Source of the DNA: Verrucomicrobiota bacterium
GTDB lineage: Bacteria > Verrucomicrobiota > Verrucomicrobiia > Limisphaerales > UBA11358
Assembly: GCA_049510395.1 (NCBI GenBank)
Contig: JBEKYY010000021.1
Span: 13,970 to 77,969 of the forward strand
Direction of reading: 5' to 3'
Length of the DNA: 64,000 nt
Below, piece after piece: positions 15,838-16,666 of the stretch. The notes below the pieces were generated by a model, which was not told the origin of the DNA, searched no databases, and saw nothing but the letters and a program-made list of their open reading frames with translations. Every line of letters starts with the position of its first letter. Positions within the stretch are counted from its first letter, which is position 1. A program made the translations under genes and the position numbers.

Positions 15838-15843
15838 AATAGG

Positions 15844-16533
15844 TTAATTTGAGGACGCCAAACCACAAAGTTCCTTACGTAAATCATCGGTCAATCCCAA
15901 GCCTTTTTCCAAAAAAACCACTCCGGGAACCCGCGCGAGACTCTTCTTTAACATGGTCCAATCTGCATTTGGCTGGAAGGTTCGCAATTTTTCATATGTC
16001 ACCGCATTCTCCTCGGAGGCCAATAACTGTAAAACCTGCGCGCACTCCTCCATTTTAAGATTTCGTGAATGGTACACCTCAAATGCCAGCGATTTGGCTA
16101 CCAACACCAGACGGGGACCTGTGTATAGAATCTCGGAGACCAAGGTTGCAGACGCTCGCGGATTTGCCAATAACATTGCAGATACGCCAAAATACGGCAC
16201 CAAAGCCCGTGCACCAGGCAGTGTATTGGTTTCTTCATAATTGCCCCATTCCCACCGAGAGCGGCGAATCCATTCAACAAACAGTGCTGCCAAGAAAAGA
16301 CCGGAGATCACCATACGCCAGGCATGACTGAGATGGAACTCGCGGTTAAGAAACAATCCCATGACAGCCGAAACACCGTCTTCTCCGATGAAGAGGACAA
16401 TATACGCCAGCCAGAACGTCAAAAAGAGCACGAATATGCCAGCCAACAAAGCCAGCAGGGCACCACCCCAGCAACCTGCAATGTGCAAGGCAATTCTTCT
16501 TTCCAACCAGCGTTGTATCGCTTCGGACGTCAT
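15844..16533 (-). CDS. Hypothetical membrane protein in an AT-rich block
   Basis: ATG at 16533 (MTSEAIQRWLERRIALHIAGCWGGALLALLAGIFVLFLTFWLAYIVLFI...), with 3-4 TM helices and a soluble C-terminus. The stop lies 6 nt before the beta-CA start codon. Confidence 0.55.
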   Translation of the reverse strand: MTSEAIQRWLERRIALHIAGCWGGALLALLAGIFVLFLTFWLAYIVLFIGEDGVSAVMGLFLNREFHLSHAWRMVISGLFLAALFVEWIRRSRWEWGNYEETNTLPGARALVPYFGVSAMLLANPRASATLVSEILYTGPRLVLVAKSLAFEVYHSRNLKMEECAQVLQLLASEENAVTYEKLRTFQPNADWTMLKKSLARVPGVVFLEKGLGLTDDLRKELCGLASSN

Positions 16534-16588
16534 TGGCAATCGCTCTTTTGCAGAGACAAACGGACCATTAGATTCGAACCTACTTAAC

Positions 16589-16666
16589 TCAAAAATGCAG
16601 CATCGCTTGTGTGTCACCAGCTACCGCCCAGTGATTCGCATCAATGATGGCTTCAAAAAGGCGCAT
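16589..16666 (-). pseudogene. Truncated duplicate of the beta-CA 5' end (25 codons then stop)
   Basis: MRLFEAIIDANHWAVAGDTQAMLHF* compares with the intact gene start MHLFEAIIDANHRAVAGDKEAGLH. About 72 nt align at roughly 78% identity. The differences are mostly third-position A/T in the fragment against G/C in the intact gene. Confidence 0.6.

Follow-up and report, generated by a model that had tools for sequence, protein, structure and literature searches.

How a gene for a small membrane protein came to lie between a carbonic anhydrase gene and a displaced, truncated copy of that gene's own start is the question raised by positions 15838-16666 of the DNA analysed here. This DNA, called the window below, is a stretch of 64,000 nucleotides from contig JBEKYY010000021.1 of a Verrucomicrobiota bacterium. 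The genome in question (G000) is a metagenome-assembled genome (MAG) of 3.46 Mb in 72 contigs with a G+C content of 0.568, and the genomes compared here are all metagenome bins. We find that the block is an insertion. Its origin is best explained, with a probability of roughly 0.45, as a single-gene cassette that would have entered a hot spot in the start of the beta-carbonic-anhydrase-like gene (CA) by homology-guided insertion-duplication, without a dedicated integrase. Along the minus strand, the locus consists of the following features, each open reading frame (ORF) being given with its stop:

16764..17000, minus strand: PspC-domain gene (Pfam PF04024, E 2.7e-24), conserved upstream neighbour of the locus
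16667..16763, minus strand: native CA leader, 97 nt, a low-copy intergenic element resembling repetitive extragenic palindromes (REP-like), ending in ..gttgaaaacc right before the ATG of the fragment
16589..16666, minus strand: displaced CA start (attL-like copy), 25 codons and TGA, MRLFEAIIDANHWAVAGDTQAMLHF, of which nt 1-55 (16666..16612) are the significant duplicate
16534..16588, minus strand: spacer of 55 nt between the fragment and the membrane ORF, with which it travels
15844..16533, minus strand: cargo, a 229-aa membrane protein of the family here called M1, G+C 0.49, sole ORF of the block
15838..15843, minus strand: gap of 6 nt between the cargo stop (TAA) and the CA ATG
14944..15837, minus strand: intact CA gene, 297 aa, whose first 55 nt (15837..15783) are the attR-like copy

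The three-part layout had first been proposed in a sequence-only reading of the window, the coordinates and frames of which proved correct. The identity of the CA gene is supported by a match to PF00484 (Pro_CA) at 39.4 bits (curated cut-off 25.7) and by the zinc-ligand motifs CVDPR and HTDC (Cys-x-Asp-x-Arg ... His-x-x-Cys), read directly in its translation; the protein is 89% identical to that of G017. The duplicate itself is real. When the genome was searched against itself with blastn, 15783-15837 matched 16612-16666 at 85.5% over 55 nt (E = 1.1e-8), local blastp of the two CA starts gave 79% identity over 24 aa (E = 1.2e-8), and a profile of CA nt 1-60 built from 24 relatives matched the fragment with an nhmmer E of 1e-17. 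The original figure of 72 nt at about 78% identity was slightly generous, as only nt 1-55 are significant: the stretch up to nt 72 (..CTGCAT) scored 16, against 12.7 +/- 1.9 for shuffled sequences, and 45 of 500 shuffles equalled it. The block was also rightly called AT-rich (G+C 0.49, compared with 0.59 in the CA gene and 0.568 in the genome). Whether the fragment is a foreign, lower-GC allele or a decaying copy had been left undecided; it looks mostly foreign, given that all but one of its six departures from the genus consensus are synonymous and that its distal part, like the spacer, is homologous to the sequence accompanying this membrane ORF in assemblies L029 and L030. The change R13W is a sign of decay, that is, of a later defect.

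That the block was inserted follows from an empty site, which the sequence-only reading had suggested seeking in relatives. With one genome per species and a query made of the leader end and the uninterrupted CA start, a single record was returned, the MAG Verrucomicrobiota SPRUCE 68 (G107). Here, the same PspC gene is followed by the same REP-like leader (..gcgttgaaaacc), which runs directly into an intact CA gene, 90.4% identical in nucleotides to that of G000. Over its last 110 nt, the G000 leader is 95.5% identical to that of G126 and 90% to that of G107, and on the CA tree G107 falls in the well-supported clade of G000. In G126, the same leader is followed by a CA fragment and a different cargo. 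The PspC gene precedes the CA locus in G107, G126, G111, G073 and others.

The empty site also bears on the possibility that nothing was inserted at all, i.e. that an ancestral operon of membrane ORF and CA underwent local duplication or gene conversion, or that the layout is an assembly artefact. In the order, several families do have M1 or its distant homologue M2 directly upstream of CA, frequently with no fragment, and a 72-contig MAG invites suspicion of misassembly. However, the leader is identical at the empty site, the M family is present in only 11 of the 121 genomes of the genus, and close relatives on the CA tree carry either M1 or M2, which are 24% identical. A simple tandem duplication of the upstream gene together with the CA start was rejected, since the sequences upstream of the fragment and of the resident ATG are unrelated. 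As for misassembly, the same unit of fragment, spacer and ORF is found in two independent assemblies, L029 and L030, and the layout with other cargos in 16 other assemblies. An ancestral operon with local duplication is thus largely refuted by the empty site and the unrelated cargos, and we consider the absence of any insertion hardly credible.

A wider search for truncated 5' duplicates, likewise suggested at the outset, was productive. Of the 121 genomes of the genus, 81 contain a match to a degenerate DNA pattern covering CA nt 10-50, and eight of these 81 have two same-strand copies 215-1073 bp apart. When about 5 kb upstream of CA was searched with a profile in these 81 genomes, where the contig allowed, a second CA start was detected in 13, located 213-1126 bp upstream and on the CA strand (nhmmer E 1e-9 to 1e-19). 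All 13 begin at model position 1 (ATG) and end at position 48-58. One additional, decayed copy was present in G111, and no further decayed fragments were found above z = 3.2 in the genomes with empty sites. On a maximum-likelihood CA tree, from which the duplicated part of the gene was excluded, the occupancy of the 13 genomes takes 12 gains or losses to explain, at least 10 of them demanded by well-supported branches; this suggests at least 10 independent insertion events within the genus. A screen of 251 genomes of the order with a 45-aa query detected the layout in four genomes of other families, three with two fragments each (G173, G253 and G334) and one with a single fragment (G367). In G334, one of the two fragments measures just 24 nt and is joined to the following ORF as a fusion. 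Across the 121 genus and 251 order genomes, only short-range pairs of CA starts were seen and none far apart.

None of the inserts at these 17 occupied sites exceeds about 1.2 kb (about 1.13 kb in the genus), all but one in G173 are co-oriented with CA, and at occupied genus sites a clear cargo ORF terminates 3-20 nt short of the CA ATG. No recombinase was recognised in any insert ORF at the 17 sites. In 77 of the 81 congeners, some same-strand ORF ends within 40 nt of the CA ATG. These ORFs belong to about 33 unrelated families, which makes the site immediately before CA hypervariable even where a fragment is missing. Judged by sequence comparison, the first ~25-100 nt of the CA gene is a recurrent insertion hot spot in these peat Verrucomicrobiota.

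One isolated fragment had to be set apart from this pattern. In G028 (L039, C41 8143-8857), a 65-aa CA pseudogene stands at the old flotillin/Zn-ribbon locus beside a PIN-domain toxin-like ORF, while the working CA gene is on another contig. It was considered as a sign of a large parent element and rejected, being a CA pseudogene.

The occupied CA starts enclose at least nine unrelated cargos, which include candidate phage-defence genes:

G000 and assemblies L029/L030: M1 membrane ORF
G112 and G126: M2 membrane ORF with a C-terminal DnaJ domain, distant homologue of M1 (24% identity, E 2e-10)
G003 (intact), G017 (internally deleted) and G006 (stump): Bro-N protein, PADLOC candidate PDC-S13 (E 4.7e-119)
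G066: HicB-HicA
G130, G073 and G118: membrane peptide of 35-47 aa, insert G+C 0.36-0.38
G088: ORF of 350 aa
G084 and G102: repeat proteins
G111: TerB-like protein (weak Pfam match)
G173: HicBA, then a reverse-oriented gene pair, which we take to be a BrnT-like toxin-antitoxin pair from reading alone, without a check against a family library
G253: PIN-domain toxin with a small upstream ORF (VapBC-like)
G367: three small genes including an HNH endonuclease

Genomes with a common cassette type are non-sisters on the CA tree, and the cassettes are more similar than their hosts' CA genes. HicA is 89% identical in amino acids between G066 (family f1) and G173 (f54), vs 60% for the CA proteins. PDC-S13 is 90% identical between G003 (f1) and G334 (f78), vs 70% for CA, and the Bro-N cassettes of G003 and L031 are 86.7% identical in nucleotides, vs 77.1% for CA. 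These values indicate that cassettes move horizontally into the same site, across family borders. In G017, the internal deletion of the Bro-N cargo resulted in an in-frame fusion to the CA fragment. The PDC-S13/Bro-N cassettes (L012:500-660, L031:3880-4010, L124:2130-2300) also contain perfect palindromes of the type GGTAACAAATTGTTACC before and within the cargo, which read VTNCYQL in frame; the G006 stump retains these alone.

The M1 family comprises 54 homologues with 30-77% identity, which lie directly upstream of a Pro_CA gene in the contigs looked up and frequently follow PspC without a fragment. M1 is thus a frequent but patchy partner of CA and not random foreign DNA. The M1 protein of G000 had no match in Pfam or PADLOC. 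Its AlphaFold2 model (predicted local distance difference test, pLDDT, 79) consists of a long helical hairpin and a C-terminal winged-helix-like domain, for which no PDB match at E <= 0.001 was obtained (best 0.056).

Could the block be what remains of a larger element? According to such a scenario, an integrase-bearing element was reduced by deletion to one gene flanked by attL and attR, a classical decay remnant of the kind known as a cis-mobilizable element (CIME). Integrase-less direct repeats containing a gene end do fit the CIME definition (PMC5704250), and a tyrosine-recombinase-like gene lies 1.1 kb away, on the far side of CA:

14744..14821, minus strand: tRNA-Pro(GGG), directly downstream of CA
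13309..14700: ORF of 463 aa beyond the tRNA-Pro, weakly tyrosine-recombinase-like (PF00589 at 21 bits, below the curated cut-off)

The initial statement that no recombinase is present holds for the block, the weak candidate being found only beyond the tRNA. This candidate belongs with the tRNA-Pro, and the two probably mark the edge of a tRNA-linked island at about 5-14.8 kb of the window; in G126, the tRNA-Pro is present without a neighbouring recombinase-like gene. Furthermore, an integrase or a fragment of one is retained at none of the 17 occupied sites, the genus inserts are no longer than about 1.13 kb, and neither the co-orientation nor stops placed 3-20 nt before the ATG would be expected repeatedly from random deletions. 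The same compact cassettes are also intact in non-sister genomes and in other families. We therefore regard a decay remnant as highly unlikely.

The junctions allow host and cassette sequences to be told apart. Between G000 and G126, the leader and the initial bases of the fragment are 95-97% identical, after which identity drops to 72% and then vanishes. Between G000 and L029 there is no similarity upstream of the fragment, while identity of 65-85% extends from the fragment through spacer and ORF to CA; the G000 spacer is 65-72% identical to the spacer between fragment and ORF in L029 and L030, whose upstream gene differs. From this, it can be inferred that the leader is the host's, and that the distal fragment, the spacer and the ORF are the cassette's. 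When G107 serves as reference, its bases at nt 5, 9 and 12 are shared with the fragment and those at nt 27, 33, 37, 45 and 48 with the resident copy; at these latter positions, the fragment has G/C-to-A/T differences absent from the resident copy. This partition is a perfect 3|5 over eight informative sites (chance about 1/56), and a similar partition around nt 21-26 was seen in G073. The exchange in G000 may thus have taken place between nt 13 and 26, inside the invariant 14-nt block GAAGCCATCATTGA, although the evidence for this is thin. That most of the fragment would be the cassette's copy accounts for its foreign and lower-GC appearance.

The extent of the duplication depends on the cassette, with fragment lengths of 24, ~50, 53, 55-57, ~72, ~82 and 95-100 nt. 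In the genus cases homology begins at the ATG; only in G173 is the leader duplicated as well, giving a repeat of 142 nt that includes 59 nt of CA leader. A fixed-length target-site duplication is unsupported: the shortest repeat measures 24 nt and the longest 142 nt, and in no more than 2-4 of 13 genomes is the resident copy matched most closely by the fragment of the same genome. Around HicBA, in two different families, each of the two CA copies shows the allele type of its host, a result expected of gap repair from the target but not of conservative exchange. A constraint on the CA start at DNA or RNA level, such as a hairpin or a selected attachment site, was rejected on the basis of synonymous entropy, which at third positions of codons 1-18 is 0.89, compared with 0.67-0.98 elsewhere in the CA gene.

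The following model could account for these observations. The incoming DNA would carry the membrane ORF and, directly after its stop, a copy of the CA start from the ATG onwards. A reciprocal exchange between this copy and the chromosomal CA start would generate two direct repeats. The upstream repeat would consist of the native leader and the first ~20 nt, continuing as the foreign, AT-richer allele up to a stop, i.e. the dead 25-codon fragment; the downstream repeat would begin with the foreign ATG region and continue as native sequence, forming the start of the working CA. The cargo would then be placed between the CA promoter and CA and presumably be transcribed from that promoter, with CA restarting 6 nt after the cargo stop. 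No terminator-like sites were found in 14900-17100, where promoter-like matches were at chance level, and both results are compatible with read-through into the cargo from the CA promoter. We envisage that host recombination would act on circularised or 'ends-in' DNA through 50-100 nt of CA-start homology, possibly with gap repair from the target, and that long repeats would not persist, being liable to recombine with each other. Selection by itself would restrict survivors to gene ends, because only fragments containing a gene start or a gene end rebuild an intact gene.

The sequence-only reading had also pointed to mutY (32232-33541), where we find the same three parts:

32232..32342, plus strand: native, GC-rich mutY start fragment
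32427..33266, plus strand: AT-rich ORF for a coiled-coil membrane protein, 275-279 aa
33411..33541, plus strand: AT-rich replacement mutY start, mutY beginning at 33411

Over 46 aa, the mutY starts share 54% identity (E = 4e-13), and both junctions fall at the 10-nt sequence CCGAAATCAT (32326-32335 and 33532-33541). The polarity is opposite to that at CA, since the upstream fragment is native and the gene start foreign at mutY, whereas at CA the fragment is mostly foreign. Duplicated mutY starts were also detected in G103 (about 1.15 kb apart), G113 and G057, and the junctions differ between genomes: in G113 (L125, C28), an insert of 4.8 kb separates duplicated starts that reach to about aa 72, compared with about aa 47 in G000. 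No recombinase-like ORF was recognised in the G113 insert, whose genes, on the opposite strand, encode large secreted repeat proteins of 874, 414 and 144 aa. REP-like words (gcaaagacgccaag.. / cttggcgtctttgcg) in the CA leader (16690-16760) and in mutY (33945-34015) are related, the mutY word being in frame within the gene (..KTPSSQRKTFLKNFAAFAPLRERN..); the leader element as a whole has 1-5 copies in the G000 genome.

In G000, the mirror image of the layout occurs at three 3' ends, those of purM, glmS and a DEAD-box helicase gene:

C67:119353-120180: 3' end of purM; the gene ends in ..FIRAQKHKAWLIGEVLKGRGRTRVI and its stop, with a 237-aa ORF (G+C 0.476) and a 77-nt diverged tail copy (..VIRAQKHRARPVGEVVKGRGQARVV and stop)
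C5:73812-75182: 3' end of a GlmS-like gene; it ends in ..CDVDKPRNLAKSVTVE and its stop, with a 232-aa ORF (G+C 0.41), a 175-aa ORF and a 62-nt tail copy of 84% identity (..CKVDKPRNLSKSVTVE and stop)
C12:146702-149880: 3' end of a 412-aa gene; a 2.9-kb block of G+C 0.47 with ORFs of 180 and 697 aa and a diverged duplicate of the 3' end (..PKGGYAGKAR..)

The C5 gene is presumed to be GlmS-like from its C-terminal peptide; if it is glmS, this would be the classical attachment region of Tn7, occupied with no transposase in view. The C12 gene we take to encode a DEAD-box helicase. The recurrence with varied cargos shows that a process using the CA start repeatedly does exist. The shared mechanism that had been proposed, one targeting gene 5' ends, was drawn too narrowly, as 3' ends are involved too, and a mechanism common to CA and mutY is no more than a possibility. 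Two further AT-rich single-ORF blocks (C2:40487-41175 and C16:18306-19138) have flanking direct repeats and differ in kind from the gene-end cassettes; their ORFs are presumably similar to REP-associated tyrosine transposases (RAYT) and to transposases of insertion sequence IS200, as read from the N-termini only.

An alternative in which the CA start is a genuine recombination site deserves attention. The inserts would be minimal, non-autonomous cassettes, similar to micro-CIMEs or integron cassettes, with the CA-start mimic as attP and attB within the CA start, and their insertion and excision would be catalysed in trans by a recombinase of the tyrosine or serine type, supplied from another genomic location or by a helper element. 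It would then be natural for the site to have been used on at least 10 occasions in a single genus, and in other families besides, and for identical cassettes to occupy the same place in distant hosts. The mapped exchanges in G000 and G073 coincide with the invariant block GAAGCCATCATTGA at nt 13-26, an inverted repeat CACCGG-N7-CCGGTG occupies nt 35-53, both mutY junctions share the 10-nt core CCGAAATCAT, and some integrative and mobilizable elements (IMEs) are known to integrate into gene 5' ends and restore them (PMC5704250). On the other hand, none of the 17 occupied sites has a recombinase beside it, and 372 genomes yielded no large element at the site. Depending on the cassette, 24 to 142 nt are duplicated, the HicBA copies are of the host allele type in two families, and the CA start has no excess of synonymous conservation that would betray a selected DNA site. 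Moreover, many unrelated gene ends are affected in one genome, so many specificities would be needed. We consider a recombinase acting in trans somewhat unlikely, yet a serious competitor. Homology-guided insertion is favoured because the duplicated length and the mutY junctions vary, the HicBA copies are host-type and unrelated gene ends are affected.

It is also conceivable that homology operated on one side only. Linear foreign DNA would pair with CA on its right side, whereas its left side would be joined illegitimately at a break inside the recipient CA start, by homology-facilitated illegitimate recombination, break-induced replication or another form of template switching. The cargo is often the gene usually found upstream of CA elsewhere (M1 or M2 after PspC), left junctions are variable, and the reverse-oriented insert of G173 brought 59 nt of CA leader with it, all of which this scenario would accommodate. 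The L029 spacer shares a 15-nt block, without mismatch, with the region around the PspC stop in G111 (a score reached by 1 of 500 shuffles), which suggests a donor breakpoint in PspC. However, this signal was significant in only 1 of 28 comparisons; a PspC 3'-end remnant as the origin of the spacer is no more than a lead, since it was significant for L029 vs G111 only and not for G000, G112 or G126. In addition, left junctions would be expected anywhere, yet they cluster at nt 24-100, and each cassette family keeps its own right and left junctions in several hosts, which means that it moves as a defined unit. One-sided joining is accordingly improbable in our view, and clearly so.

Several points weigh against insertion-duplication by homology, the reading we prefer. 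Conservation of the membrane-protein gene upstream of CA without the fragment, which had been named in advance as evidence against an insertion at this site, was encountered in part: M1 homologues stand directly upstream of CA without a fragment in G082 (= L028), G111, G042, G106 and L031. Since such homologues are found in at least five genomes, some of the occupancy may stem from ordinary homologous replacement through two flanks. The partition of informative sites rests on eight sites and one outgroup and becomes blurred with the near relatives L041 and L079. The host-like copy varies across the 13 genomes, being sometimes the fragment and sometimes the resident copy, and the inverted repeat at nt 35-53 is a possible core site for a recombinase. 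Furthermore, integration through 50-100 nt of DNA of 85-98% identity is inefficient in model bacteria, and the model gives no account of how cassettes whose stop abuts a CA start originate.

If the preferred reading is true, a gene-start mimic of 50-100 nt suffices for small genes to spread between families, forming a class of transfer invisible to finders based on integrases and transposases. For genomes with few classical mobile elements, such transfer would explain how 'defence islets' and toxin-antitoxin pairs came to be interspersed among housekeeping genes, as well as why these islets form only at gene termini, where the target gene gets rebuilt. The CA locus is a good test bed: a single genus provides at least 10 independent events, empty sites occur in sister genomes, and different families have identical cassettes in common. 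One could go further and imagine a cassette system without a recombinase of its own, in which the portable copy of a gene end serves both as homology arm for docking small genes without promoters into the chromosome and as restart pad for translation of the target, while termini such as those of CA, mutY, purM and glmS act like attI sites at which toxin-antitoxin and candidate defence genes are traded across the families of the order. This extension is tentative, and we hold it to be more doubtful than probable.

How, then, does the CA locus compare with known systems? The CIME and micro-CIME accretions described for the ICEs (integrative and conjugative elements) and IMEs of Streptococcus (PMC5704250, PMC7563491) likewise consist of integrase-less units bracketed by direct repeats of a gene end, with the target left intact. 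With each new arrival the older units come to lie farther from the gene, which produces multi-fragment arrays as in G173, G253 and G334. The G000 block has the direct repeat (55 nt), and its sole ORF is that of the membrane protein, without a match in Pfam or PADLOC. In contrast to CIMEs, no integrase-bearing parent, helper or relative was found at the CA site, whether at the 17 occupied sites or in the 372 genomes (121 of the genus and 251 of the order). At CA, a unit amounts to one gene or one toxin-antitoxin pair, measures 0.2-1.1 kb and abuts the start codon; all but one lie on the same strand as the target, and the repeat length varies by cassette. Their target, a gene start, is rare for IMEs. 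Tycheposons and the accretion of tRNA-linked islands in Prochlorococcus (bioRxiv 10.1101/2020.12.28.424599) similarly use a site repeatedly and leave partial target copies between successive inserts, as well as degenerate integrase-less remnants, but tycheposons have tyrosine recombinases and tRNA genes as targets, neither of which is the case at CA.

Elements specific for dusA, and SXT/R391 at prfC, also insert at the first codons, substitute the 5' end of the gene and displace the native fragment upstream. At CA, too, the insertion is in the first codons, and the informative sites indicate a foreign ATG region in the resident gene. The dusA-type elements are, however, tens of kilobases in size, with their own tyrosine integrase beside the att site and a fixed core, whereas the CA inserts are about 1 kb, lack an integrase and have variable junctions; no cognate edge integrase was found in them. 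Integron cassettes are likewise small, mostly promoterless, co-oriented single-gene units collected at one site below a resident promoter. They resemble the CA units also in a cargo rich in toxin-antitoxin pairs and small unknown proteins, in arrays that grow at one end and in the sharing of cassettes by distant hosts. Unlike integrons, the CA locus has no IntI or attI and, with stops 3-20 nt before the ATG, no room for attC; the repeated unit is a piece of housekeeping coding sequence, and new cassettes enter at the promoter-distal end. The upstream neighbours of the genus loci are PspC, flotillin, NfeD and Zn-ribbon proteins. No recombinase-like ORF was present in the ~5 kb upstream (whole genomes were not searched for IntI), and no motif is shared by the boundaries of different cassettes.

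The same topology of fragment, insert and intact gene is produced by Campbell-type insertion-duplication with gene-disruption vectors. There, a working gene is retained only with a cloned piece that includes one of the gene's two ends, crossovers can take place at any point of the shared segment, and gap repair can render both copies host-like. These vectors are a laboratory method relying on hundreds of bp of identical homology, while 50-100 nt of diverged sequence would have to suffice here. We know of no description of Campbell-type integration as a natural and recurrent route for defence or toxin-antitoxin cassettes. Taken together, the CA locus would represent a new form of integrase-less cassette accretion at a gene terminus, one that departs from CIMEs, integrons and dusA-type elements in the very features by which these are defined.

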